Assembly (NCBI RefSeq): GCF_000018105.1
Contig: NC_009925.1
Location: 2,850,001-2,882,000 of the forward strand
Source of the DNA: Acaryochloris marina MBIC11017
GTDB lineage: Bacteria > Cyanobacteriota > Cyanobacteriia > Thermosynechococcales > Thermosynechococcaceae
Length of the DNA stretch: 32,000 nt
Direction: 5' to 3'
The notes beneath the pieces are model-generated. The model did not search any database, was not told the DNA's origin, and was given only the letters and a program-made list of their open reading frames with translations. This document shows, piece by piece, positions 1-31,173 of the stretch. Positions within the stretch are counted from its first letter, which is position 1. Each line of letters opens with the position of its first letter. Position numbers and translations under genes: made by a program.

Positions 1-1153
1 ACTTAGACGTACATAGAATTTTGGAGTGATCGCACCGATCTTTATACTTCGCTGCAATTTCAGTTACTTCTTTCATCAGGCCAACATCTAACTTCGTCGG
101 TTGCAGACCTAAATCCATAAAGCACTTATTCTCAACAAATAATTCGTTTTCTGCTGCCTCTGTTCTGGGATTTTCTAAGTAGTCAATCTTAGCCCCAGTA
201 ATATCTGCAATAATCTTGGCCAAATCCCTCACCCGGTGGGTTTCAGTCATTTGGTTAAATATTTTGACCCGCTCTCCAGCTTCAGGGGGGTTCTCAACGG
301 CTAGTTGAATACATTTAACAGTGTCCTGAATATGAATAAATGCTCGGGTCTGACCGCCCGTACCATGCACTGTTAAGGGGTGGCCAATGGCGGCCTGCAT
401 CAGAAATCGGTTCAGGACAGTCCCATAATCACCGTCATAATCAAAGCGATTAATCAGGCGTTCATCCTGCTTTGTATCTTCTGTATTCGTTCCCCAGACT
501 ACACCTTGGTGCAAGTCGGTGACTCGAATCTTGTCATTCTTGTTGTAGTAGTAGAAGAAGAGCTGATCCTGGGTTTTGGTCATGTGATAAACACTGCCCG
601 GATCCGCAGGATAGAGGATTTGCTTTTCAACCACCTCACCGGTATCAATCACCACCTGAACATCAAGATAGCCTTCAGGAATCTTCATGCCAGCAGTACC
701 ATAGCCATAAACGCCCATGGTGCCCAGGTGAACCACATGGATATCCAGGCCAGATTCAACGATGGCGGCTAAAACGTTATTGGTCGCATTGAGATTGTTA
801 TTAACCGTGTAGCGCTTTTGCCGGGATGACTTCATGGAATACGGTGCAGCCCGTTGCTCAGCAAAATGCACAACCACATCAGGGCGATAGGTGCAAAACA
901 GATTTAAGAGCCGATCGTATTCCGCCGCGATATCGAAGTTATAGAACTGAATATGCTTGCCTGTTATGTCTTGCCAGGTTTTCAGGCGAATCGAAATCGG
1001 ACTAATGGGGGTTAACGAGTTGGTCTCCAACTCATTATCAATGTTGCGCCTGGATAAATTATCCACAATGACAACATCATGGCCAAGTTTGGATAGATGT
1101 AGCGCAGTTGGCCAGCCGCAGAACCCATCACCGCCCAATATTACAATGTTCAT
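1..1153 (-). CDS. sqdB: UDP-sulfoquinovose synthase SqdB, C-terminal end cut by the window edge
   Basis: Absent from the ORF track because it runs off the window. My minus-strand translation from ATG 1153-1151 gives MNIVILGGDGFCGWPTALHLSKLGHDVVIVDNLSRRNIDNELETNSLTPI..., later FAEQRAAPYSMK and HLGTMGVYGYGTAG. The frame stays open to position 2 (about 384 codons). These are the Rossmann GxxGxxG and SqdB-type motifs. Confidence 0.85.
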   Translation of the reverse strand, partial: MNIVILGGDGFCGWPTALHLSKLGHDVVIVDNLSRRNIDNELETNSLTPISPISIRLKTWQDITGKHIQFYNFDIAAEYDRLLNLFCTYRPDVVVHFAEQRAAPYSMKSSRQKRYTVNNNLNATNNVLAAIVESGLDIHVVHLGTMGVYGYGTAGMKIPEGYLDVQVVIDTGEVVEKQILYPADPGSVYHMTKTQDQLFFYYYNKNDKIRVTDLHQGVVWGTNTEDTKQDERLINRFDYDGDYGTVLNRFLMQAAIGHPLTVHGTGGQTRAFIHIQDTVKCIQLAVENPPEAGERVKIFNQMTETHRVRDLAKIIADITGAKIDYLENPRTEAAENELFVENKCFMDLGLQPTKLDVGLMKEVTEIAAKYKDRCDHSKILCTSK

Positions 1154-1415
1154 GCTTTGTCCCTAAACCGAATGTCTCAATTACAGACGAGAATTTGAAT
1201 CTTCAGAATTGCTGGTCAGTCAACGACACACCCTTTTCAGCAACCGTTAGATACGCTACCCGTTTATAACAGCTTCATAGTCTTTAAGAATATCTCAAAT
1301 CGGGGACCATCACGATTTGGGGTTGTGACAATGCTCAGATCGTATTTTGGCCAACCGCTGGGATAAGGTGAGTCTTACAAATAATAAGGTTCAGTTTCTA
1401 GACCTCACATGGACT

Positions 1416-2543
1416 TTAGGCTTTAGGCATGATGAAATTGGCAAAGCTTAGCTCGTTGACCTTATTCCACTGGTAAACCTTCTCGCGAAAGGCTTTCCAG
1501 GGTTCGTAGATCTCTTTAAAGCTAGCCTCTTTTGCCGCGTTCTCCTCATAGATCTCAAAGGAGATTTTTTGGGCGGCTTGCAGGATATCGTCGCTATAGC
1601 GAGTGAGTTGCGTCCCCCCTGCCACTAACTGAGAGATAACATCACGGTTTAAGGCATCATAGGCGGCCAACATGTTGATATTGGCTTCGTAGGCCGCCGT
1701 TTTGAAGATTTCTTGGTATTCCTTGGGCAATTTATCCCAAGCTTGGCGATTGACTAGGACATCGAGGGTAGGACCAGGTTCCCACCAGCCGGGATAGTAA
1801 TAGTATTTGGCGGCTTTTTGTAAACCGAGTTTCTGGTCATCATAGGGTCCCACCCATTCTGCGGCGTCGATGGTGTTTCGTTCTAAGGCCAGAAAAATAT
1901 CGCCACCGGGCAGGACTTGCACATTGACTCCTAGCTGCCGCATCACTTCACCCCCTAAACCAGGGATCCGCATTTTGAGTCCTTTTAGATCGCTAGCCGT
2001 TTTGATCTGGCGTTTGAACCAGCCGCCCATTTGCGCTCCCGTGTTACCCGCCGGGAAGTTAATGACGCCAAAATCTGCATAAATTTTTTGCATGGCTTCC
2101 AGACCACCGCCATGATAGAGCCAGGCATTTTGCTGCTGGGCAGTCAAGCCAAAGGGAACGGCAGTGGCAAACCCCAGAGCGGGGTTTTTACCAATGTAGT
2201 AGTAACTAGCGGTATGACCACATTGGACACTACCGGAGCGAACCGTGTCTAAAACTTCTAAGGGTGGGGCAATTTCGCCCCCCGGTGAGACCTGAATTTG
2301 AAACCGACCATCGGTCATAGCATTGACGCGATCGCTAATGGTTTTGGCACCGCCATAGATCGTGTCTAAGGATTCTTGCCAACTGGTGGCCATCCGCCAG
2401 CGGACTCGGGGTAGGGAACCGGAGCTAGTCGTAGAGGAACGCCGACAGGCCGCGAGGGTGGTGGTTGCGATCGCACCCACGGCCGAATTTCGTAATAAAT
2501 TGCGTCGTTTCAACTGTTCGCTCCTCAACCCTACAGGGGCCAT
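1416..2543 (-). CDS. TRAP-type transporter periplasmic solute-binding protein (DctP/COG4663-like) with a twin-arginine signal
   Basis: ORF 1416..2654. The likely real start is Met38 (2543), giving [33 protein letters not shown], a Tat-like RR signal. The body has [44 protein letters not shown] and [11 protein letters not shown], typical of this SBP family. Confidence 0.85.
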
Positions 2544-2764
2544 CTCGCTAAGCCTGCTATCAGAGGACTTTCGGCAAATCTTCCGAGAGATAACCGCCTC
2601 CAATCCTACCGATAAATGAATCCGCTGCTGGAAAACGCAACAGAATGTTGCCATTCCTTCCCAATTTCCCTGATTTTTTAGGCAGAGGAGTAAATCAAGA
2701 CTGTCGCTTCATGCAACGGTAGGGGAACTCTAGGGCCATAAATTGACTTGTCTCTGGTAGCAAG

Positions 2765-5101
2765 ATGTCGAAAAGGCGACGATACCGACCGTTTTTAATT
2801 CTTTTTGCGATAGGAATGTTCCTAGGATGCTTAACTGCCACGCATCCTAGACTGATCGCCAATCCTCACTTATTCCATGCCCAAGCTTACTGGACTCCGA
2901 CGGTTACCCAGACGGTCAATCAAACGTCCTTGGCGGGAACCTGGGAGTTTCAAGCCGATCCGCAGCCCCCGGCAGACAAGCTAGTGCTACAGCCAAGTGG
3001 CCCAGATCTCCCACCCCTACCGCAAGGACAATGGCAAAAGATTACCGTGCCCTCCAACTGGTATCTACAGGGGCAAGATGCATCGGGGGTGGTTTGGTAT
3101 CGCCATCAATTTCGCGCTAACGATCGATGGCGTCGAAAGATTACCCGCCTCGTTTTTTCGGGGGTGGACTACACCGCCGATGTTTGGCTAAACGGACAAT
3201 ATTTAGGGTTTCACGAGGGCTATTTTCAGCCCTTTTCCTTTGATGTGTCTAAGGCCCTAATGTTTACAGGTCAGAATGAATTATTAGTCCGGGTCAATAG
3301 CCCCTTGGAGCCTGAAGGCCAGGATTGGTCCCTGCGTAAACGGTTGATTAAAGGCATTTTTAGCCACCACGATACCCGTCCGGGTGGGGCATGGACCGAT
3401 CGCGGCCAGGAGAAAAACACCGGGGGTATTTGGGCACCCGTATTTTTGCAAGTCTCGGATCAAGTCGCCATTGAAACACTTCAAATCACCCCGGAGTTAG
3501 ATACCGACCATCAACAGGCAACGGCCAAGGTGGATCTGGTGGTCAACTCTCCAGGGCTGGGCAAGACCACTCTAGATGCCCATATGAAGTTAGAGCCAGA
3601 GAACTTTGAAGGGGTACCGATTGGCCCCATTCAAGTGCAGCGAACCCTGCATCAAGGGGCCAATCACCTAAAGCTAGAGGTTCCCGTAGATGACCCGAAA
3701 CTCTGGTGGTCTTGGGAGCATGGAGACCCCAATTTATATCGCCTCACGGTACAGTTAGCCGATGGCAATCGGCTCCTGGATAAGGCTTCTGATGTGTTTG
3801 GATTTCGCACCATTCAGTTTGACCCGACAGAAAAAATCTGGCGACTGAATGGTCGCCGCCTATTTTTGCGAGGCACCAATTACATTGCCACCCAATGGCT
3901 GAGTGAAATGACGCCGGACAAATACCAGACGGATATTGACCTGATGAAAGCGGTCAATATCAATACGGTGCGGGTTCATGCCCATGTGATCGGCAAGGAG
4001 TTTTATGAACTGTGCGATCGCAACGGCGTATTTATCTGGCAAGACTTCCCCTTGCAGTGGGGCTACGAAGATACGCCCCAATTTCTCAAAGAAGCCACCC
4101 GCCAAGCCAAGGACATGATTGGTTACCTTTACAACCATCCGTCGATTCTGGCCTGGAGTCTGCATAATGAGCCACCCTGGGATGCGGACTGGATGAAGTA
4201 TAAGTACGAGTCCTATAATCCAGAGCAAAATCGCGAGCTAGATGCCAAACTGTTTGCCAATCTCCAAGGAGAAGACCCGACCCGTCTGCTCCATCCCGTA
4301 TCTACCGTCGGGGAGCATCCCTGGTGGGGCTGGTATTCCCACACGATGTATAAATATGCAGAACCAACTACAGAAGCGATTATTTCCGAATTTGGCGCTC
4401 AAGCTTTACCCCATATAGATTCCCTGCGGCGCATCTTTACGGAGGACGAGCTATGGCCGGATACAGAAGCGGAATGGGATAAGTGGCTCTATCACAACTT
4501 TCAACGCCATGAAACCTTCAACATTGCCAAGGTGCCCATGGGCAACACCACCCAGGAGTTTATCGACAACACCCAGCAGTACCAGTCCCAACTGATTCAG
4601 TTTGCCGCCGAAGCCTATCGTCGCCAGCGCTATCAGCCCGTTTCATCCATTTTTCAATTTATGTTTGTGGAGGATTGGCCGTCCATGAACTGGGGCATTG
4701 TCGATTACTGGCGACAGCCTAAGCCCGGCCATGAAGCCCTGAAATGGGCCTATCAGCCGGTCTTACCCAGTATTGCGTGGCCGCAACTCACCTGGACCTT
4801 GGGAGAAACGGTAGAGCTGGAACTCTGGGCCATCAACGATTTGTGGAAAGACTATCCAGAGGCCATCTTTACCTATGCCCTGCGCCAGAATCAACAACGC
4901 CTTAAATCCGGTCAAAGTCGGATTAATTTGGCTGCCGATAGCAGTCAGCCTGTAGATAAGATCTTTTTCCAGCCCCAGAACTTGGGTAGCTACACCGTCA
5001 CCGCCACCCTCAAGGATCGGCTAGGAACGGTCTTGGGAGAAAACCAGTTTGTGTTTGATGTGATTGATCGGGGGGATCAAACCAATGAGTCGACGTCGTA
5101 A
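2765..5101 (+). CDS. Glycoside hydrolase family 2 protein (beta-mannosidase/galactosidase-like), N-terminal membrane anchor or signal
   Basis: 778 aa. The GH2 sugar-binding region reads VVWYRHQF...VDYTADVWLNGQYLGFHEGYFQPFSFDV. The TIM-barrel has the acid/base motif WSLHNEP and the nucleophile region IISEFGAQAL. The N-terminus is hydrophobic (RPFLILFAIGMFLGC). Confidence 0.8.
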   Translation: MSKRRRYRPFLILFAIGMFLGCLTATHPRLIANPHLFHAQAYWTPTVTQTVNQTSLAGTWEFQADPQPPADKLVLQPSGPDLPPLPQGQWQKITVPSNWYLQGQDASGVVWYRHQFRANDRWRRKITRLVFSGVDYTADVWLNGQYLGFHEGYFQPFSFDVSKALMFTGQNELLVRVNSPLEPEGQDWSLRKRLIKGIFSHHDTRPGGAWTDRGQEKNTGGIWAPVFLQVSDQVAIETLQITPELDTDHQQATAKVDLVVNSPGLGKTTLDAHMKLEPENFEGVPIGPIQVQRTLHQGANHLKLEVPVDDPKLWWSWEHGDPNLYRLTVQLADGNRLLDKASDVFGFRTIQFDPTEKIWRLNGRRLFLRGTNYIATQWLSEMTPDKYQTDIDLMKAVNINTVRVHAHVIGKEFYELCDRNGVFIWQDFPLQWGYEDTPQFLKEATRQAKDMIGYLYNHPSILAWSLHNEPPWDADWMKYKYESYNPEQNRELDAKLFANLQGEDPTRLLHPVSTVGEHPWWGWYSHTMYKYAEPTTEAIISEFGAQALPHIDSLRRIFTEDELWPDTEAEWDKWLYHNFQRHETFNIAKVPMGNTTQEFIDNTQQYQSQLIQFAAEAYRRQRYQPVSSIFQFMFVEDWPSMNWGIVDYWRQPKPGHEALKWAYQPVLPSIAWPQLTWTLGETVELELWAINDLWKDYPEAIFTYALRQNQQRLKSGQSRINLAADSSQPVDKIFFQPQNLGSYTVTATLKDRLGTVLGENQFVFDVIDRGDQTNESTS

Positions 5102-6824
5102 GTTACGGACGCTATTGATCTGTTTTATCGCCTCAGTCGCCTTAACGATTGGGGTGGCTAAGTGGGTCTGTAGCCAGCAGCTCGCCGAGGACTTTGCACC
5201 TAAAATTGTGCTCAACCAAGTTGGGTATCGCGCTAACTGGGACAAGGTGGCCTTTTTACTCAATGCAGAAGACAATGCACCTATTACAACCAACGTCATT
5301 GACCGTCAATCGGGGAAAACAGTGGCTACGATCCAGCCTGGGCCCGCTGAATTGGATGAACAGAGTCGCGATCGCATCCAAACCCTAGACTTTTCCAACT
5401 TCAAACGATCCGGTGAATACTACCTGCAAGCGGGCGACTTAAAATCAGTCCCTTTCCAAATTGGCCAGGATATCTATCAAGACACCTTTACCAAGCTCCT
5501 ACGCACCTATTATTTACAGCGCTGCGGCGTCGCCATCTTTGATCCAATTACCGGAATTTATCACCCTCCCTGTCATCTCAAAGATGCCGTAATCGCCCAT
5601 GATGACGCCTTTCACAAAGCGGGCGATACAGTGCAAAGCCAAGGAGGGTGGCACGATGCAGGGGACTACGGCAAATACGTGGCGACCACAACGGTCACTA
5701 TCGGCAGCTTATTCAGTCTGTACGAGCAATATCCCCAAAACTTTACTGACGACCAGTTAGATATTCCCGAAAGTGGCAACCAGCTCCCCGACTTGCTAGA
5801 TGAGATGAAAGTCGGGCTAGACTGGCTGCTCTCCACGCAGCGCCAAGATGGTGGGGTCTATCGCAAGCTTTCAGGCAAGGAATGGCCCATTGGCAAAGCC
5901 CCCGATGAAGACAAACAAACTCGCTACCTGTACGGCGTGTCTACCCCTGAAACCGGGAAATTCGCCGCAGTGATGGCCATGGCCGGTCGGATTTACAAGG
6001 ACCCCCAACAGGCCAAAACCTACCTAGATGCCGCTCAGCTAGCCTGGGACTATTTGCAGACTCAAGACCAAATGCAAGAAGGCTGGATTGACGGCGACGA
6101 TAGTGGTTCTGGTAAGTATCTCCTATCTGAAATTGACATCGAGGACAGTTTGAAAACGGACATTGACGATCGCTACTGGGCCGCCGCCGAATTATTTCTG
6201 ACCACTGGAGACTCAAAGTTTGAGCAATATCTGGTGGACCATTTCGATCAGATGCCCTTTAACCTCTACGAGTGGAAGGATGCCTCCACTCTAGGCATGG
6301 TCGATTATCTGTTCTATGCCAAGGCGGACCCCAACCAGCTCAAACCTCAAATTCAGCAAAAGCTTCTAGACCGTGCCGATCAAATTATGGGGCGGGTCGA
6401 AGGAAGTGGCTATCGGCTAGCCAACCATCGCTTTATTTGGGGGTCCAACAAAATGACAGTCGAAGAAGGCATTACCTTAGTCCATGCCTATCACCTCACC
6501 CAAGAGCAGAAATATAAAGAAGCCGCTCTCGATCAGCTCCACTACATGATGGGTCGCAACCACTTTGATCAAACCTTTGTCACGGGGGTGGGTACTCATC
6601 CTGTGGCAAAGGTGAACCACCTCTTTGCCAGAGCGAAGCAAATCAACATTCCGGGTTTAGTGGTCGGAGGGCCTAATGATGGAGCCCAGGATAATATTGC
6701 CCCCAAAGGGTTAGGCATTCGCAGCTATCTCGACAGCGAAAAGTCCTATGCCACCAATGAATATGCCATTGACTACAACGCTCCCCTGATCACTCTTTTA
6801 GGAATGCTGTTGGAGACGTCTTAA
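5085..6824 (+). CDS. Glycoside hydrolase family 9 endoglucanase with N-terminal Ig-like (CelD_N) domain
   Basis: It carries the GH9 hallmark GGWHDAGDYGKY and the C-terminal NEYAIDYNAPL. The N-terminal region IVLNQVGYRANWDKVAFLL is Ig-like. A TM/signal segment is LRTLLICFIASVALTIGVA. The start may be ATG 5085 (overlapping the GH2 stop by 17 nt) or ATG 5064. Confidence 0.88.
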   Translation: MSRRRKLRTLLICFIASVALTIGVAKWVCSQQLAEDFAPKIVLNQVGYRANWDKVAFLLNAEDNAPITTNVIDRQSGKTVATIQPGPAELDEQSRDRIQTLDFSNFKRSGEYYLQAGDLKSVPFQIGQDIYQDTFTKLLRTYYLQRCGVAIFDPITGIYHPPCHLKDAVIAHDDAFHKAGDTVQSQGGWHDAGDYGKYVATTTVTIGSLFSLYEQYPQNFTDDQLDIPESGNQLPDLLDEMKVGLDWLLSTQRQDGGVYRKLSGKEWPIGKAPDEDKQTRYLYGVSTPETGKFAAVMAMAGRIYKDPQQAKTYLDAAQLAWDYLQTQDQMQEGWIDGDDSGSGKYLLSEIDIEDSLKTDIDDRYWAAAELFLTTGDSKFEQYLVDHFDQMPFNLYEWKDASTLGMVDYLFYAKADPNQLKPQIQQKLLDRADQIMGRVEGSGYRLANHRFIWGSNKMTVEEGITLVHAYHLTQEQKYKEAALDQLHYMMGRNHFDQTFVTGVGTHPVAKVNHLFARAKQINIPGLVVGGPNDGAQDNIAPKGLGIRSYLDSEKSYATNEYAIDYNAPLITLLGMLLETS

Positions 6825-24095: not shown

Positions 24096-25676
24096 ATGTC
24101 AGTTAAGATTTGTCAACAATCCAGATCACAAAGATCGAAAAAAGTTGGAAGATATTTAGCCTTGAGCTTGGGACTAGTGCTGCTATGGCCGCTTCAACGA
24201 GCTCAGGCCGATAGTCCCTTAACCTCCACCGATCTGGCCACAGCCTATCAAGAGATGCCGGAAGTCCAGTTAGCCCAACGCACCAAAGCTGCCAAGGGCC
24301 AGGTCTTAAAGTTCCTGCTGAGCGATGCCCCCACGGACCAAAAAGCAGCGGTGATTAATGCTCTGGGCTGGAATTTTAAGGGCCAACGAAATGGCTATCG
24401 TTTCCTAGCCGGTTTAGCTCAAGCCCAAGGACTGGCCCTGCAAGAGATCCAGCTTCACCATTTGCGGCCTACCGATCGCTTTGCCCTAGGCTATCTGCTG
24501 GCCATGGATGATTATTTTGAACTGTCTTCCTTATCTAAAACGGCGACTGAAGACCTGTGGAAAGCCAGTCCCCTACAGCTGATCAGTCAAGCGGCTTATG
24601 CCTTACCCGATGATTTTACGGTGCAGTTTGTTCGCGCGATTGTCCAGGGACAGAACGACTTTTCTCGCTCTTGGTGCTCAATCTATCTAGAGCCACAGCA
24701 AGTGTTAAACCAATTTCCTGTGGCGAAACGGAATTTGCGATCGCAAGCCGTTACCCAGGCCATGCAGTATCTCAATCGCTATGAGTCCCACTGCCAGCAA
24801 CCTGCTTTCTTGACGAACCAACCGTCCGTTAACCCTGAACTCAACCAAATCTACAAAATTGTCGAATTTCAGAATCAGATAGTCACAGCCACTCAGGGCG
24901 GGATTGTCTTTTGGGATCCACAATCCCAGACGGCAACCGCAACCCGAGCGGAGAAGCTCTGTACATCCCTGATGGTCTGGTCCAATGCGCTATGGGTGGG
25001 CTGTCAACATCGCCTCTTGCGCTTCGACAGCAACAACTGGAAGCTCTATCGCTATAGCCCTCAATCCACGGAAAGCGGTTTTCAGCTCGTCCCAGGTCCT
25101 CAAGGAACCTTACTCGTCCGCCACGGGGGACAACTCTGGCAGTTTGATCCGAAGAAAGATCGGTTAGTCGCTGCCGATCCACAGTTGGGTCCCGGACACA
25201 GCTATGACCTGCTCTATCGACGCAATGGCGAGCAATGGCGGATCGATTTTCTCCAAGCCCTCTGGCGCAATCAGCAACGCATCTCGCTCCAGTCTGATGC
25301 CTATCCTGGTAGCGATCCGCGATCGTTTTATGAAGATGCCAACGGTCAACTGTGGGTGGTGGACTTTAACCAGGGCTTTTTTCGCTTCAATGACCAGACC
25401 CAAACCTTTCAAGCCATGACCCGTGTTGCCGGTAAGGGATCTGCGATCGCAACCGATCAACAGCACACCTACTTCCTGCACTACACCTCAGGATTGTATG
25501 TTCAGACGCAAGGTCAAGCCGACCCCACGTTCATTGACCTCTCAACATTACGCTATATGCGAGACCTCTTCGTCGATCAGAAGGGTGATATTTGGATCGG
25601 GGGCTGGAATCAATTGGTGCGATTACGTCGCCAAGGAAATCAGTGGAGCCGAGACCGTTATCGCCTGTTTAACTAA
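24096..25676 (+). CDS. Secreted protein with C-terminal beta-propeller-like (Reg_prop-like) repeats
   Basis: 526 aa. The signal peptide is RYLALSLGLVLLWPLQRAQA|DS. Recurrent motifs are ALWVGCQHRLLRF, GQLWVVDFNQGFFRF and GDIWIGGWNQLVRL. Confidence 0.6.
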   Translation: MSVKICQQSRSQRSKKVGRYLALSLGLVLLWPLQRAQADSPLTSTDLATAYQEMPEVQLAQRTKAAKGQVLKFLLSDAPTDQKAAVINALGWNFKGQRNGYRFLAGLAQAQGLALQEIQLHHLRPTDRFALGYLLAMDDYFELSSLSKTATEDLWKASPLQLISQAAYALPDDFTVQFVRAIVQGQNDFSRSWCSIYLEPQQVLNQFPVAKRNLRSQAVTQAMQYLNRYESHCQQPAFLTNQPSVNPELNQIYKIVEFQNQIVTATQGGIVFWDPQSQTATATRAEKLCTSLMVWSNALWVGCQHRLLRFDSNNWKLYRYSPQSTESGFQLVPGPQGTLLVRHGGQLWQFDPKKDRLVAADPQLGPGHSYDLLYRRNGEQWRIDFLQALWRNQQRISLQSDAYPGSDPRSFYEDANGQLWVVDFNQGFFRFNDQTQTFQAMTRVAGKGSAIATDQQHTYFLHYTSGLYVQTQGQADPTFIDLSTLRYMRDLFVDQKGDIWIGGWNQLVRLRRQGNQWSRDRYRLFN

Positions 25677-25842
25677 GAATTAATCTCTTCTTAAGTCGGA
25701 TAATTCTTATTTGTTAAGCCCCTCACTTTCCGGATGTCACTTTTTTGTATCCTAAAATACAATTATTCATATCTAGACTTGATATTTCTTGTATAGAGAC
25801 CCCATTAATCAATTAGTCATAATTCTTCAACAAAATACTTGT

Positions 25843-25972
25843 TTCTAGGGTTCCGATTTGAGCGCAATTTCGTCTTAAATGACTGGTCCAAGAGAAACAG
25901 CTAGCTTTTTACATATCTATTACCCACAGACATGTAGCTAGTGACACGGAGGGACAAAAGCCCGGGAGAATC
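25843..25972 (+). ncRNA. Guanidine-I (ykkC) riboswitch aptamer
   Basis: It contains CTAGGGTTCCG (25845-25855), GGTCCAAGAG (25885-25894) and ACACGGAGGGACAAAAGCCCGGGAGA (25944-25969). These are the conserved ykkC cores in the correct order. Confidence 0.85.
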
Positions 25973-26022
25973 AACGTTTACCGTACATTCGGTAATGATT
26001 GGCTCCGCGGGTTTTGTATTTT
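25961..26022 (+). terminator. Riboswitch expression platform: intrinsic terminator sharing its 5' arm with the aptamer 3' end
   Basis: CCCGGGAG (25961-25968) pairs with CTCCGCGGG (26003-26011) over 8 bp with one bulge. TTTTGTATTTT follows at 26012-26022. Confidence 0.65.
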
Positions 26023-26118
26023 AAATTGACACGTCTCATCTTCCTCTAAAATGGCTGAGAAACAACATGAAGAAAGAAATTAACGTGACAAAGTAAAAAC
26101 CCTAAATTTTCCGATATT

Positions 26119-27315
26119 ATGGCTGAAAACTCGACCTTTGGTCCTCCCAATTCTGATCCTAATTTTTCGTCCACTGAGGCCAATCGTGCTTTAGAGAAAG
26201 AAGCACAATTGCCCCTCACGGGCTGGCAACAAGAAGTTGACCGGGGATTAGAACTGGGGTTAGAAGCGGCGGCTAGTATTCGCGATCGGAGCATCCCCAC
26301 CTTCTCGCGAGGCGAGCTGCCCCACTATGCGGGCATCAATACCTTCCTCAAAGCGCCTTACCTAGAAGATGTGCGTAAAGTCGATGAATACGATATTGCT
26401 GTAGTAGGCGTTCCCCATGACTCCGGCACCACTTATCGTCCCGGTACGCGCTTCGGCCCCCAGGGTATTCGTCGGATTTCAGCCCTGTATACTCCTTATA
26501 ATTTCGAGCTGGGTATCGATTTACGAGAGCAGATCACCCTCTGCGATGTTGGGGATATCTTCACCATCCCCGCCAATAATGAGAAATCTTTTGACCAAAT
26601 TTCCAAAGGAGTCGCCCATATCTTCAGTTCTGGCGCTTTCCCTATCATCTTAGGGGGCGATCATTCCATTGGTTTCCCCACTGTTCGAGGGGTTTGCCGC
26701 CATTTAGGGGACAAGAAAGTCGGTATCATCCACTTCGATCGCCATGTGGATACCCAAGAAACGGATTTAGACGAGCGCATGCATACCTGCCCTTGGTTTC
26801 ATGCCACTAACATGGCCAATGCTCCGGCTAAAAACTTAGTGCAATTAGGCATTGGCGGTTGGCAAGTGCCTCGACAAGGGGTCAAGGTCTGTCGAGAGCG
26901 AGCCACGAATATTCTCACCGTCACCGATATCACTGAAATTGGACTTGATGCTGCCGTTGACTTCGCCTTAGAACGAGCCTTAGACGGCACAGACTGCGTC
27001 TATATCAGCTTTGATATTGACTGTATTGATGCTGGATTTGTCCCCGGTACCGGCTGGCCAGAACCCGGCGGTCTGATGCCCCGAGAAGCTCTCTATATGT
27101 TGGGCAAAATTATTCAAAAAGCCCCCGTCTGCGGCTTGGAAATCGTTGAAGTGTCACCCCCTTATGACATCAGCGATATGACCTCGCTCATGGCCACTCG
27201 GGTCATTTGCGATACCATGGCCCATCTTGTGCTGTCGGGGCAACTTCCCCGGCAAAAAGCACCAGACTATATTCATCCTGAAGCCAATATGGCAGTAGGT
27301 TCTGAGTGGGTTTAG
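26119..27315 (+). CDS. gdmH: Arginase/ureohydrolase-family enzyme; best interpreted as Ni-dependent guanidine hydrolase (usually annotated agmatinase SpeB2)
   Basis: 398 aa. Ureohydrolase metal motifs are ILGGDHSIGFP, IIHFDRHVDT and ISFDIDCIDAGFVPGTGWPEPGG. It has an N-terminal extension of about 60 aa relative to SpeB. It lies behind a guanidine riboswitch and in front of hypA/hypB-like genes. Confidence 0.8.
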   Translation: MAENSTFGPPNSDPNFSSTEANRALEKEAQLPLTGWQQEVDRGLELGLEAAASIRDRSIPTFSRGELPHYAGINTFLKAPYLEDVRKVDEYDIAVVGVPHDSGTTYRPGTRFGPQGIRRISALYTPYNFELGIDLREQITLCDVGDIFTIPANNEKSFDQISKGVAHIFSSGAFPIILGGDHSIGFPTVRGVCRHLGDKKVGIIHFDRHVDTQETDLDERMHTCPWFHATNMANAPAKNLVQLGIGGWQVPRQGVKVCRERATNILTVTDITEIGLDAAVDFALERALDGTDCVYISFDIDCIDAGFVPGTGWPEPGGLMPREALYMLGKIIQKAPVCGLEIVEVSPPYDISDMTSLMATRVICDTMAHLVLSGQLPRQKAPDYIHPEANMAVGSEWV

Positions 27316-27318
27316 GCC

Positions 27319-27699
27319 ATGCATGAAACGGATATGACCAAGGCCCTAATTATGACGGTCAAGGACTGGTACGATTCCCAGCCTGAAGATCCACAAATCA
27401 CCAAAATTCATTTGGTGGTGGGTCGGTTTACCTGTGTGGAACCTGTCAGTTTGCAGTTCGCTTATGAAGTCCAGACTCGGGACACCTTCTTAGCGGGGAC
27501 AGAGTTGGTGATTCGGGAGACCCCTTTAATCGCTTTTTGCCACCCCTGTCAGCAGGAATATTCTCCTGAAATGGGCTTGCAATATGCCTGTCCCACGTGT
27601 GGAGCCCCCATGGAAGATATCCGGTCCGGCCGCGAACTCAAAATTGACCACATCGAATATTGTTCTGATTCAGCCCAAACCTATGCACCAAACTGTTGA
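27319..27699 (+). CDS. ghaA: HypA-like Ni metallochaperone (guanidine hydrolase accessory protein A)
   Basis: 126 aa. It has the N-terminal MHE Ni motif and the zinc motif CHPCQ...CPTCG. It starts 3 nt after the preceding stop. Confidence 0.8.
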
Positions 27700-28381
27700 C
27701 GCCGCCCTCGGCATTAACCTCTTACATGCCAATCAAGAAGGGGCCGATCACAACCAGGCTCACTTTAACGAATGGGGAGTGACCTGCTTTAACGTCATGA
27801 GCAGTCCAGGTGCAGGGAAAACGGTTCTGTTAGAGAAAACTCTGGCAGCTCTCAGCCCAGACCTCAATCTGGCCGTCATTGAAGGGGACATGACTACAGA
27901 ACTGGATGCTGATCGCTTGCGAGCTTACGATGTCCCTGTGGTGGCAATTAACACGGGGCGGTCCTGCCATCTAGACGCCAAGATGGTGGCGGGCGGTATC
28001 CACCAATTGGAGCATTGCACCAATCCTAGAGAGTTGGATTTAGTGCTAGTAGAGAATGTCGGAAATCTTGTATGTCCGGCAGAATTCGAAGTAGGGGAGC
28101 ATGCCAAAGTTGCCCTACTCAGCGTGACAGAGGGGGAAGATAAGCCGCTGAAATATCCAGTGATGTTTCAAGCAGCCGATTGTCTGTTGGTGACCAAGAT
28201 AGATTTAGTTCCTTATCTAAATATTGATATTGAGCAGATTGTCCAAAATGTCCGTCAGCTCAATCCCCATGCCACGATTTTGCCAGTGTCTGCCCAAACA
28301 GGGACAGGACTTTCTGAATGGTTTGAGTGGGTTCGTCAGCAGGTTGTCCACCTCAAACGGACTGCAGTCGGTAGTCACTAG
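27683..28381 (+). CDS. ghaB: HypB-like Ni-binding GTPase (guanidine hydrolase accessory protein B)
   Basis: The ORF is 27584..28381. The likely start is ATG 27683 ([17 protein letters not shown]), overlapping the hypA-like stop by 17 nt. G1 is SSPGAGKT, followed by [12 protein letters not shown] and VTKIDL. Confidence 0.85.
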
Positions 28382-28408: not shown

Positions 28409-29434
28409 ATGAAGCGACGAAATTTTCTATCCCTATGTTTAGTATTTTTTTGCAGTTTACTGCTGACGATCAGTTGTAGCCCATCGCCTGAGACGACCAC
28501 GGATTCATCTTCAGGCAAGCCTGTGGTGATTGGCTATAGTAGCTGGGCAGGATGGTGGCCCTGGGCCATTGCCGAGCAAGAAGGTTTATTCAAAAAGCAT
28601 GGGGCAAATGTCGAGCTGAAATGGTTTGACGGCTATTTAGAATCGATGAAAGCATTTTCTGCAGGCCAATTGGATGGCAACTGTCAAACCTTAAACGACA
28701 CCATTTCCTTTGCAGCCGATGCAGTCAATGGAGAAGTGGCGGTTTTGGTCAATGACAATTCTGCTGGCAACGATAAAATTATCGTGACGGCTGAGATCAA
28801 CAAAGTTGAAGACCTCAAAGGGAAAACGGTAGCCGTTGAAGCCGGGGTTGTAGACGACTTTCTCCTGACTTTAGCCTTAGAAGAAGAGGGTATGAAACGC
28901 TCTGATGTCAAAATTAAGGACTTACCGACAGATGCAGCCGCCGCCGCTTTTGCTGCCGGACAAGCGGATGCGGTGGGCGCGTTCCCTCCTTTTTGGTTAA
29001 CAGCTTTAAAGCGTGAAGGTAGCAAAGAGCTAATTTCCTCTAAAGAGTTTCCCGGTGCCATTCCTGATCTGCTGGTGGTGAGTCAAAAGCTGATTGATGA
29101 GCGTCCTGACCAGGTCCAAGCATTAATCGATACTTGGTTTGATATCCGAGACTTTATGGCCAAGAACCCTGAACGTTCGGATGAGATTATGGCGCAACGA
29201 GCAGGTGTGAGTGTTGAAGAATTCCAGCAATTTAAGGAAGGAACACGATTCTTCACCATTGAAGACAACTTGGAAGCCTTTTCCGCTGGCGGCGACGATA
29301 TGAAATATATGCCCTTTGCAGCTCAGCGGATGAGTAAATTTATGGTGGATGTGGGCTTTATTCCTAAAGGACCGGATCTCACTAAGATTTTCAATGACAC
29401 CTTTGTAAAAGCCTATGCGGAGAAAACAGCCTAA
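28409..29434 (+). CDS. ABC transporter substrate-binding lipoprotein (NitT/TauT, NMT1-like family)
   Basis: 341 aa. The signal plus lipobox is FFCSLLLTISC|S. It shows the SsuA/NrtA-like fold pattern (VIGYSSWAGWWPW, GKTVAVEAG). Confidence 0.8.
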   Translation: MKRRNFLSLCLVFFCSLLLTISCSPSPETTTDSSSGKPVVIGYSSWAGWWPWAIAEQEGLFKKHGANVELKWFDGYLESMKAFSAGQLDGNCQTLNDTISFAADAVNGEVAVLVNDNSAGNDKIIVTAEINKVEDLKGKTVAVEAGVVDDFLLTLALEEEGMKRSDVKIKDLPTDAAAAAFAAGQADAVGAFPPFWLTALKREGSKELISSKEFPGAIPDLLVVSQKLIDERPDQVQALIDTWFDIRDFMAKNPERSDEIMAQRAGVSVEEFQQFKEGTRFFTIEDNLEAFSAGGDDMKYMPFAAQRMSKFMVDVGFIPKGPDLTKIFNDTFVKAYAEKTA

Positions 29435-29457
29435 CATCTAGGATTGCCCCAAACAGC

Positions 29458-29521: not shown

Positions 29522-30394
29522 ATGAGTGCTAATTCTGTTCCACCACAACATGAGAAAACAGCGAAGACTCAAGGACTTCAACCCACAGTCTTTTGGCGCA
29601 TCGCTGAGGATATCCCCCCTGGCCTCAGCTGGCTGTTGATGGTGCTTTCTGTTGCAGTACCCCTGACCTTTTGGTGGTTGTTGGCCACCTATGGTGACGT
29701 CAATCCTGCTTTCCTACCCTCTCCAGGTAAAGTCGGGACAGCATTTGTTGATCTGTGGCATCAGTACGATACCCTCAATCAAAAGGATACCTACCCACTC
29801 TTTCAAGCCACCCTGATGAGCTGTTTTCGGGTGGGTAGCGGCTTTTTGCTGGCCTCTATACTGGCTGTGCCAATGGGGATTGGCATGGGGGCCTTCGCCA
29901 GCTTGCGATCGCTGGGTGAACCGATCATTGGCATCGTTCGATATATGCCCGCACCAGCGTTTATTCCCCTCCTACTGATCTACTTAGGGTTAGAGGAAGA
30001 GCCGAAAATTGCCCTGATTTTTATCGGTACGATTTTCTTCAATGTGCTGATGATTATGGATGCCGTTAAGTTTGTCCCGAAAGAACTGATTGAAACGACC
30101 TATACCCTGGGCGGGAATCGGACTCAAGTCTTGCTTCAGGTAATTACTCCCTATGTTATTCCTCGCATTATTGACGCCTTCCGCGTCAATATGGCGGCGT
30201 CTTGGAATCTAGTGGTGGTCGCAGAGTTGGTCGCAGCCGACGAAGGTCTGGGTAAACGAATTCTGCTAGCCCAACGCTTTAACAGTGTGGATAAGATTTT
30301 TGTCTGCTTAATTGTGCTAGGGTTGCTGGGATTTAGTTTGGATCTCTTTTTTCGCTGGCTACAACATGTCACATGTCGATGGGCCATTGAATAG
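29522..30394 (+). CDS. ABC transporter permease (NitT/TauT family)
   Basis: The ORF starts at 29444, but its first 26 codons cross the hairpin, so I prefer ATG 29522 (MSANSVPP). It has six hydrophobic helices and the EAA-type loop ETTYTLGGNRTQVLLQVITPYVIP. Confidence 0.85.
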   Translation: MSANSVPPQHEKTAKTQGLQPTVFWRIAEDIPPGLSWLLMVLSVAVPLTFWWLLATYGDVNPAFLPSPGKVGTAFVDLWHQYDTLNQKDTYPLFQATLMSCFRVGSGFLLASILAVPMGIGMGAFASLRSLGEPIIGIVRYMPAPAFIPLLLIYLGLEEEPKIALIFIGTIFFNVLMIMDAVKFVPKELIETTYTLGGNRTQVLLQVITPYVIPRIIDAFRVNMAASWNLVVVAELVAADEGLGKRILLAQRFNSVDKIFVCLIVLGLLGFSLDLFFRWLQHVTCRWAIE

Positions 30395-30396
30395 CA

Positions 30397-31173
30397 ATGC
30401 ATTTAGAAACCATCCATTTGTATAAAAGCTTTGCGGTTCGCCAAGGGCAGCTTTCAGTTCTTGAAGACATTAATCTGCATGTGGAAGCGGGGGAGTTTGT
30501 CTGTGTTGTCGGTGCCTCAGGTTCAGGTAAATCGACACTACTCCGTCTAGTGGCCGGTTTGGACACGCCGACCTCCGGCTTAATTACGGTAGATGGTCTC
30601 CGGGTGATTGGTCCGGGTAATGACCGCGGTATGGTGTTCCAACGCTATACCCTTTATCCCTGGATGACTGTGGCTGAGAATGTGGCTTTTGGCCTGAAGC
30701 TGCAAAAACTGCCTAAATCAGAGCGCCAGCAGCGGGTAGCCTATTATTTGGAGGTCGTGGGTCTCACTAATTTTGCCCGAGCCTTACCCCGTGAACTTTC
30801 GGGTGGAATGCAGCAACGAGTCGCCATCGCACGTTCCTTAGCCTGTCAACCCAAAATTTTACTGATGGATGAACCGTTTGGGGCCTTAGATGTGCAAACC
30901 AAAGAGACCATGCAGGAATTTTTACTGGATCTATGGCGACGGACAGGGACGACCATTTTAATGATCACCCATGATGTGGAAGAAGCCATTTTCCTGTCGC
31001 AGCGCATTTATGTTCTCACCGCTCGCCCAGGTTCGGTTCAACGGGAGGTGTTTATTAACCTACCTGCAGAACGGACGTATACGATCAAGCGTCAGGCTCT
31101 CTTTCAAGACTATCGCGATGAAATTATGGATCTGTTACGGGAGAAATCTGCCTTAGATCCAGTGATAGACTGA
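30397..31173 (+). CDS. ABC transporter ATP-binding protein
   Basis: 258 aa. It has Walker A GASGSGKST, signature LSGGMQQR, Walker B LLMDEP and H-loop ITHD. Confidence 0.9.
   Translation: MHLETIHLYKSFAVRQGQLSVLEDINLHVEAGEFVCVVGASGSGKSTLLRLVAGLDTPTSGLITVDGLRVIGPGNDRGMVFQRYTLYPWMTVAENVAFGLKLQKLPKSERQQRVAYYLEVVGLTNFARALPRELSGGMQQRVAIARSLACQPKILLMDEPFGALDVQTKETMQEFLLDLWRRTGTTILMITHDVEEAIFLSQRIYVLTARPGSVQREVFINLPAERTYTIKRQALFQDYRDEIMDLLREKSALDPVID

Follow-up and report, generated by a model that had tools for sequence, protein, structure and literature searches.

The segment 25834-26022 of the window, by which we mean the whole 32,000-nt stretch of Acaryochloris marina MBIC11017 DNA that was analysed, is a canonical guanidine-I (ykkC subtype 1) riboswitch, a member of a catalogued RNA family in its documented genetic context. 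We consider it very likely (probability about 0.9) that this element works at the level of transcription, as an ON switch for the gdmH-ghaA-ghaB-gimABC cluster whose 5′ leader contains it. The riboswitch-controlled gene set is already known from Synechocystis (PMC8390497, PMC12704784). The positions of the features are listed in Table 1.

Table 1. Riboswitch, promoter and gene features of the A. marina guanidine locus, numbered from the first base of the window
Feature	Position	Strand	Basis or remark
Candidate NtcA-type box, TGTA-N8-TACA (core GTA-N8-TAC, 25747-25760)	25746-25761	+	Exact motif match
Candidate -10, TATTTC	25783-25788	+	Geometry only: box centre about -41.5, start near 25795
Alternative -10, CATAAT	25818-25823	+	Consensus scan
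Guanidine-I (ykkC subtype 1) aptamer	25834-25970	+	RF00442 and pair map of the lineage model
P1	25841-25846 with 25893-25898	+	Lineage covariance model
Conserved aptamer block, CTAGGGTTCCG	25845-25855	+	String search
P1a	25849-25850 with 25888-25889; 25853-25855 with 25884-25886	+	Lineage covariance model
P1b	25856-25860 with 25876-25880	+	Lineage covariance model
Middle conserved aptamer block, GGTCCAAGAG	25885-25894	+	String search
Internal loop AAGA (consensus GAGA)	25890-25893	+	Sequence; A25890 is the variant position
P2, with long extension	25900-25905 with 25937-25942	+	Lineage covariance model
Last conserved aptamer block, ACACGGAGGGACAAAAGCCCGGGAGA	25944-25969	+	String search
P3	25945 with 25965; 25951-25953 with 25961-25963	+	Lineage covariance model
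3′ strand of P3, CCCGGGAG	25961-25968	+	String search
Predicted intrinsic terminator hairpin	25961-26011	+	MFE folds; base stem CCCGGGAG/CUCCGCGGG, G26007 bulged
Terminator upper stems, AAUCA/UGAUU and UUACCG/CGGUAA		+	MFE folds
Anti-P3 strand, CTCCGCGGG	26003-26011	+	String search
T-tract, TTTTGTATTTT	26012-26022	+	String search
U-tract, UUUUGUAUUUU	26012-26022	+	Directly 3′ of the terminator stem
Leader, terminator to gdmH start codon	26023-26118	+	Partly conserved in L001 and L002
gdmH, nickel-dependent guanidine hydrolase, arginase family	26119-27315	+	PF00491, E = 1e-77
ghaA, HypA-type nickel metallochaperone	27319-27699	+	PF01155, E = 4.5e-30; TIGR00100 above cut-off
ghaB, HypB-type nickel GTPase, 232 aa	27683-28381	+	TIGR00073, E = 7e-92
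gimA, NMT1/SsuA-type substrate-binding protein of ABC importer	28409-29434	+	PF13379, PF09084, TIGR01728
gimB, ABC permease, 290 aa	29522-30394	+	PF00528
gimC, ABC ATP-binding protein	30397-31173	+	PF00005, E = 6.6e-33

Identification of the guanidine-I aptamer

A covariance-model scan of the 32-kb window against 4227 Rfam families gave a single above-threshold match, RF00442 (Guanidine-I), on the forward strand at 25834-25970. The match scored 74.9 bits, where the gathering score is 63 (E = 8.5e-12), and spanned the model end to end (positions 1-107 of 107). When the scan was relaxed to E <= 10 over 25650-26150, no rival ykkC-like or other family was found to overlap it. On the opposite strand of this region, the relaxed scan returned chance-level snoRNA and miRNA matches only.

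The first-pass annotation had recognised the conserved blocks of a guanidine-I aptamer in this gap, and had named the RF00442 gathering threshold as the check on that reading. The score above that threshold upholds the claim, as do the motif strings quoted in its support, each of which was found once, no more than one base from where it had been placed. Small details were revised. The start given for the feature, 25843, cuts into P1, which begins at 25841, and the aptamer itself extends from 25834. The intergenic gap before 26119, put at 440 nt, is present and measures 442 nt (25677-26118, the upstream ORF ending at 25676). Of the blocks described as invariant, the middle one departs once from the consensus, having A25890 in place of G. 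This is a natural variant: it is present in about 18 of 64 related cyanobacterial aptamers (about 30%), and G is found in about 70%.

P3 is short, consisting of GGG:CCC and one C-G pair, and the stretch ACACGGAGGGACAAAAGCCCGGGAG, with the P3 S-turn and ACGG nucleotides, agrees with the RF00442 consensus. The C, A, C, G, G, GGG, CCC and G.GAG elements are unchanging across the related aptamers. The assignment of single guanidinium contacts to the S-turn and ACGG nucleotides of P3 is taken from the Guanidine-I structures (5T83, 5U3G, PMC8457001).

Comparative support for the aptamer structure

The downstream protein was searched against 185,579 species-representative genomes, which yielded 558 relatives, and the best 80 of these 558 loci were analysed. 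Their organism labels are cyanobacterial or unassigned, with three exceptions; Synechocystis PCC 6803 lies outside the set. Matching of a three-block pattern located an aptamer upstream of gdmH in 64 of the best 80 loci, and 59 of the 64 were used to build a lineage covariance model with explicit structure. Run over 81 sources, this model detected 68 aptamers, and just one in the window.

In the model-based alignment of the 68 aptamers, 93.9% of the pair cells were paired and compensatory double changes were seen at 15 of the 26 pairs (187 cells), while none of 500 shuffles attained any of the observed measures. When the partner strand was displaced by one to three columns, pairing fell to 26-58%. 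By helix, compensatory changes were found at four pairs of P1, five of P1b and six of P2; P1a varies one-sidedly, and P3 is invariant and hence uninformative on covariation. A model-fitted alignment is biased towards its own structure; RNAalifold applied to a plain MAFFT alignment independently reported 9 covarying pairs. MAFFT-based pair counts for P2 were discarded, the sequences being in differing registers there, and the covariance model was used instead.

A predicted terminator competing for the 3′ strand of P3

The base stem of the predicted terminator hairpin re-uses the 3′ strand of P3, CCCGGGAG, and because one strand is common to both structures, P3 and the terminator are mutually exclusive. 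Unconstrained folding of 25834-26024 gave an MFE of -54.0 kcal/mol, with P1, P1a, P1b and P2 retained and the hairpin 25961-26011 formed instead of P3. With the aptamer pairs enforced, the energy was -38.8 kcal/mol and the terminator base stem was gone. The alternative pairing of the last aptamer block with 26003-26011, followed directly by a U-tract, had been proposed in the first-pass annotation, along with the suggestion to compare free folding with folding under the aptamer constraint; the constrained folds bear it out. The specific pairing of CCCGGGAG with CUCCGCGGG holds with one amendment, namely that G26007 must be bulged. Thermodynamic folding contains no ligand or tertiary energies; within it, the preference of 15 kcal/mol for the terminator would make OFF the default state and says no more than that, an override by guanidine not being implied.

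The hairpin alone has a folding energy of -21.2 kcal/mol, or -23.2 kcal/mol with one extra pair, and none of 200 shuffles was as stable. When P3 is held, the upper hairpin alone is left (-8.4 to -10.2 kcal/mol), and its base then lies 9-10 nt from the U-tract. The full stem is long and contains a bulge and internal loops that break its continuity; G and A interrupt the U-tract. The hairpin escaped a simple consensus scan for terminators over 25600-26200, because the loop and stem limits of that scan are unsuited to a long interrupted stem.

The same design was found in the relatives. In 56 of 65 loci (about 86%), a stretch complementary to CCCGGGAG and then a T-rich tail are found no more than 70 nt from the aptamer; of 20,000 windows drawn at random from these loci, 1.9% have this combination. 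In 64 aligned platforms, 93.9% of the cells of the 10-bp base helix are paired, and this value falls to 65% or less when the strands are slid. The 3′ strand of the helix shows nearly only C<->U changes, opposite G residues of the invariant aptamer strand. The invariance of that strand leaves no room for genuine compensatory changes in the base helix and makes a shuffle control uninformative for it. Variation of the C<->U type only would be the expected pattern where a second function fixes one strand. The guanidine-ON transcription-termination design is conserved in relatives. That design had been put forward in the first-pass annotation and is now backed by the folds, by its conservation, by the Synechocystis orthologue (PMC12704784) and by the mechanism of the Guanidine-I class, which normally works by terminator disruption (PMC12186494).

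The downstream gene cluster

The product of gdmH is ABW27833.1 of A. marina MBIC 11017, which carries the database name 'agmatinase, putative'. It shares 86.9% identity over 382 residues (E = 1.8e-238) with Synechocystis Sll1077 (PDB 7ESR/7OI1) and scores under both NCBIfam agmatinase cut-offs; its second-best structural relative is PDB 9FEK, a GdmH-like guanidinase of Nitrospira inopinata. Sll1077 degrades guanidine and does not degrade agmatine (PMC8390497), and it is a nickel-dependent guanidine hydrolase that requires HypA-/HypB-like proteins (PMC12704784; PMC12186494). At the level of sequence, independent lines confirm that ABW27833.1 is a guanidine hydrolase. The first-pass annotation had ranked the riboswitch above all other sequence-level evidence that the downstream genes handle guanidine and not agmatine. 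This was overstated, as the identity to the characterised Sll1077 weighs at least equally.

The start codons of two of the genes follow the gene calls on identical public contigs: that of ghaB is the ATG at 27683, giving a 17-nt overlap with ghaA, and that of gimB is the ATG at 29522, the longest ORF of gimB running from a TTG at 29444. By analogy, a role of gimA in guanidine import would follow from its synteny with sll1080 (PMC12704784). The predicted products confirm the six-gene cluster as a putative guanidine uptake and assimilation unit. ABW27833.1 is encoded on 18 public contigs, with its neighbours unchanged. Acaryochloris is plasmid-rich, and a plasmid origin of the cluster was considered and rejected; no PLSDB match was found, and the exact protein is encoded on a 6.5-Mb contig.

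Promoter, leader and transcription of gimABC

Three exact GTA-N8-TAC motifs are present in the window, one of which, at 25747-25760, lies 87 nt before P1. Its TGTA-N8-TACA palindrome is retained in the two closest relatives (Acaryochloridaceae L001 and L002), in which the N8 spacer differs. An exact box within 200 nt upstream of the aptamer was found in 45 of 64 related loci (about 70%), against 3% of random 200-nt windows. We regard 25746-25761 as a candidate site for nitrogen-controlled activation of the operon promoter, at which NtcA may bind. The counterpart site of Synechocystis binds NtcA, and the genes there are induced by nitrogen limitation (PMC12704784). An NtcA class II promoter was expected to have its box centred near -41.5 and, some 22 nt after the box, a -10 of the form TAN3T. 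TATTTC stands at the class II spacing, but it is without the final T of TAN3T and is a poor match.

The leader between the terminator and gdmH contains a short ORF, 26052-26084 (MAEKQHEERN). It was rejected as a leader peptide, its ATG being missing in L002.

The gimA gene begins 27 nt after ghaB, and the motif scan of the window found no exact NtcA box near its upstream side. A separate NtcA promoter for gimA was set aside, there being no exact box and the sole one-mismatch box lying at 28091, about 320 nt upstream. Because of the 27-nt gap and the missing box, the importer genes gimABC are probably co-transcribed with ghaB and gated by the riboswitch too. It is a tentative and rather doubtful extension of this that A. 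marina gimABC is promoterless and expressed only via read-through of the gdmH riboswitch, which would form a positive-feedback uptake circuit. A weaker variant of the read-through reading would place another control element, not described so far, in the partly conserved 96-nt leader.

The importer of L002, a related MAG, has gained a second riboswitch for itself.

Ligand subtype and alternative explanations

RNAs of the ykkC fold comprise the guanidine subtype and several nucleotide-binding subtypes (PMC6031431, PMC8457001). A subtype 2 variant, sensing ppGpp, PRPP or a nucleoside diphosphate and not guanidine, would have the fold and most of the conserved nucleotides in common with guanidine-I, and the GAGA loop adjoining the pocket does depart from the consensus in the window, at A25890. 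The subtypes are told apart by the residue after the pocket guanosine, an adenosine (A46) in S. acidophilus and a pyrimidine in all subtype 2 RNAs (PMC6031431). By mapping, G25892 and A25893 are the pocket residues, corresponding to G45/A46 of S. acidophilus and G54/A55 of Burkholderia; the pocket G-A is placed at the second GA of the GAGA loop because the Burkholderia structure paper names A53-G54-A55 (PMC8457001). The subtype 1 marker, A25893 beside G25892, is present in the window. The variant A25890, in turn, is the first base of the loop, which lies outside the ligand contacts and which varies freely among gdmH-linked aptamers; the last three positions of the loop show no variation in 59 relatives. 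There is no sign, in the alignment of relatives, of the P0 helix of the PRPP/ppGpp subtypes, because the seven columns 5′ of P1 are unconserved, and the 3′ flank of the aptamer passes straight into the terminator. With genes of guanidine catabolism as neighbours, the chance that the RNA senses one of these nucleotides seems to us negligible. The RNA is a guanidine-subtype aptamer, and as such it is predicted to bind guanidine.

Control could also be exerted on translation. Some guanidine riboswitch classes act translationally (PMC12186494), and the Synechocystis reporter carried the 5′ UTR in full, translation initiation region included, which makes the two levels inseparable there (PMC12704784). 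In A. marina, however, the gdmH start codon lies 97 nt past the U-tract, and folding predicts that the ribosome-binding region 26100-26125 is equally open in both states, with an unpaired probability of 0.62 with the aptamer enforced versus 0.69 without. On this equal openness, translational control was rejected; a translational platform would moreover have no need of the anti-P3 strand and T-rich tail kept in the 56 of 65 relatives, and we hold such control to be highly improbable. There is similarly a very slight probability that hairpin and U-tract form a weak terminator, being mainly a pause or RNA-stability element, or that NtcA is dominant and the riboswitch marginal. The interrupted stem, the imperfect U-tract and the lack of a call by the consensus scan would fit such a reading, as would the induction by guanidine in Synechocystis of 4-5-fold only, against 10-fold for the NtcA-dependent gimA promoter (PMC12704784). 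Yet at -21 to -23 kcal/mol (z = -2.76) the complete hairpin is a stable one, 9 of the 11 nt that adjoin it are U, and the terminator design is kept well above background in relatives. Cyanobacteria are not known to possess Rho and depend on intrinsic terminators, which also counts against a weak terminator.

Proposed mechanism

In the transcriptional ON switch that we favour, transcription would start, probably, at the NtcA-activated promoter with its box at 25747-25760, and P1, P1a, P1b and P2 would fold first in the nascent RNA. With guanidinium absent, CCCGGGAG, the 3′ strand of P3, would be captured by CUCCGCGGG further downstream, and their pairing would complete the hairpin to 26011, just before UUUUGUAUUUU, so that RNA polymerase would terminate. 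Guanidinium bound in the pocket, to which the P1/P1a internal loop contributes G25892 and A25893 and P3 contributes its ACGG and GGG (S-turn) nucleotides, would keep P3 in place. With P3 held, only the upper hairpin could form, 9-10 nt off the U-tract, and the polymerase would read through. Read-through would give the guanidine hydrolase, the two nickel chaperones and most likely also the high-affinity importer on one transcript. Expression of the operon would then require nitrogen limitation and guanidine together.

Comparison with known systems

The riboswitch-gdmH-hypA-hypB-ABC arrangement was reported in 2021 by bioinformatics and proteomics (Wang et al. 2021, PMC8390497). In Synechocystis sp. 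PCC 6803, an RF00442 riboswitch is located in the 5′ UTR of sll1077, with gdmH-ghaA-ghaB forming TU795 and gimABC forming TU794 (Itzenhauser et al. 2025, PMC12704784); Funck et al. 2022, as cited in PMC12704784, is a further source for the Synechocystis gdmH system. The Synechocystis aptamer has a Kd of about 58 uM by in-line probing and gave 4-5-fold guanidine induction of a GFP reporter, and Synechocystis gimABC has its own NtcA promoter (PMC12704784).

The A. marina locus is like that of Synechocystis in RNA family, in gene order (gdmH, hypA-like, hypB-like, SsuA-type binding protein, permease and ATPase), in the NtcA-type box upstream of the riboswitch and in the predicted ON-switch logic. 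It is unlike it in the position of gimA, which in A. marina follows ghaB closely with no exact NtcA box nearby and in Synechocystis has a separate promoter. In the aptamer itself, the A. marina copy differs by a 26-nt extension of P2 and by a GAGA loop that reads AAGA.

With the Guanidine-I class (Nelson et al. 2017; 5T83, 5U3G; PMC8457001) the A. marina RNA shares the three-hairpin fold, the pocket nucleotides and the overlap of P3 with the terminator. Most described members of the class are associated with urea/guanidine carboxylases or SugE/Gdx exporters, whereas the A. marina copy is associated with the hydrolase pathway, which is also a documented association. A guanidine riboswitch before a GdmH-family enzyme is likewise found in Nitrospira inopinata (Palatinszky et al. 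2024, PMC11410670). That organism differs in belonging to another phylum, in having an APC permease where A. marina has an ABC importer, and in using guanidine as an energy source (PMC11410670). A literature search found no paper joining Acaryochloris, guanidine and riboswitch.

Implications

The transcriptional action of the cyanobacterial gdmH riboswitch, described for Synechocystis as an ON switch, was inferred only by analogy with other bacteria (PMC12704784). The conserved terminator, with the strand that it shares with P3, supports that inference across the phylum. Taken together, the conserved terminator and the NtcA box suggest that a requirement for both low nitrogen and guanidine may be general in the phylum. 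Should A. marina gimABC be expressed only by read-through, guanidine would have to enter the cell by another route before inducing its own importer, unlike in Synechocystis, where gimABC is independently transcribed. In practical terms, the 'agmatinase' annotation of ABW27833.1 is corrected, and the published Synechocystis model is modestly generalised.

Annotation of the gdmH product

In public databases the protein encoded at 26119-27315 (+), the gdmH product, is named 'agmatinase' or 'agmatinase family protein'. Its 90% cluster has 2360 members, and among those read that carry a name, most are labelled likewise. The protein nevertheless scores lower than both NCBIfam agmatinase cut-offs, and shares 86.9% identity with a characterised guanidine hydrolase.

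Leader region and flanking genes

An exact NtcA-type box (GTA-N8-TAC) was found at 25747-25760, upstream of the aptamer, and a consensus terminator scan detected no terminator-like site from 25676 to this box. Of 64 related loci, 45 carry an exact box no more than 200 nt 5' of the aptamer (70%, versus 3% by chance), with the distances from box centre to P1 grouping at about 51-65 nt and 85-105 nt.

In the minimum-free-energy fold of 25834-26024, the A-rich loop ACAAAA (25954-25959) of P3, the aptamer helix whose 3' strand is reused by the terminator, pairs with UUUUGU (26012-26017) at the start of the U-tract, forming an A-tract/U-tract extension of the terminator helix. This predicted pairing suggests that the conserved aptamer loop may also strengthen the terminator.

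A short leader ORF lies downstream of the U-tract (see table), with an opening, ATGGCTGA, identical to that of gdmH. When the leaders of two Acaryochloridaceae loci, L001 and L002, were compared with it, a comparable ORF of 11 codons was found in L001, but the ATG was absent from L002; because of this absence, the ORF is probably not meaningful. Among the genes flanking the operon, neither the 211-aa nor the 62-aa ORF had a Pfam match.

Features of the window and of related gdmH loci
Locus	Feature	Position	Strand	Remark
Window	DUF389 protein, 589 aa	21688-23457	+	upstream neighbour, same strand as operon
Window	ORF, 62 aa	23844-24032	+	upstream; also a gene call on identical public contigs
Window	Protein, 526 aa	24096-25676	+	upstream neighbour, same strand as operon; faint Reg_prop repeat match only
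Window	Leader ORF, 10 codons	26052-26084	+	MAEKQHEERN
Window	ORF, 211 aa	31181-31816	-	convergent with operon end
L002	Guanidine-I aptamer	1082-1202	+	ahead of gimABC-like transporter
L002	gimABC-like binding protein	1298-2347
L002	gimABC-like permease	2389-3168
L002	gimABC-like ATPase fragment	3599-4141
L002	Guanidine-I aptamer	5047-5184	+	ahead of gdmH
L070	Second guanidine-I aptamer	4816-4932	-	81.2 bits in Rfam

Aptamers and transporters in related loci

The lineage-specific model, built from 59 related cyanobacterial aptamers, found two guanidine-I aptamers in L002 (Acaryochloridaceae MAG SU_2_1). There the gimABC-like transporter has its own aptamer and lies upstream of gdmH, whereas in the window the transporter is located 3' of ghaB and has no separate aptamer. 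The second aptamer of L070 (filamentous cyanobacterium CCP5) is divergent in orientation from the gdmH aptamer and is followed by a sodium:solute symporter (PF00474, 499 aa), a candidate alternative transporter for guanidine or urea.

Pattern matching and the lineage-specific model, applied to the entire fetched stretch, found no guanidine-I aptamer in 15 of the 80 gdmH loci (L015, L016, L019, L022, L024, L027, L028, L033, L043, L047, L055, L061, L069, L074 and L078), several Nostoc and Elainellaceae genomes among them. The gdmH aptamer of L002, in which the P3 loop region reads GGGGGAAAAG in place of GGGA.AAAAG, and a further aptamer at L068:2568-2715 scored 89 and 80 bits, respectively, with the lineage-specific model. 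With the Rfam model both lie under the gathering score, and would escape Rfam-based annotation.
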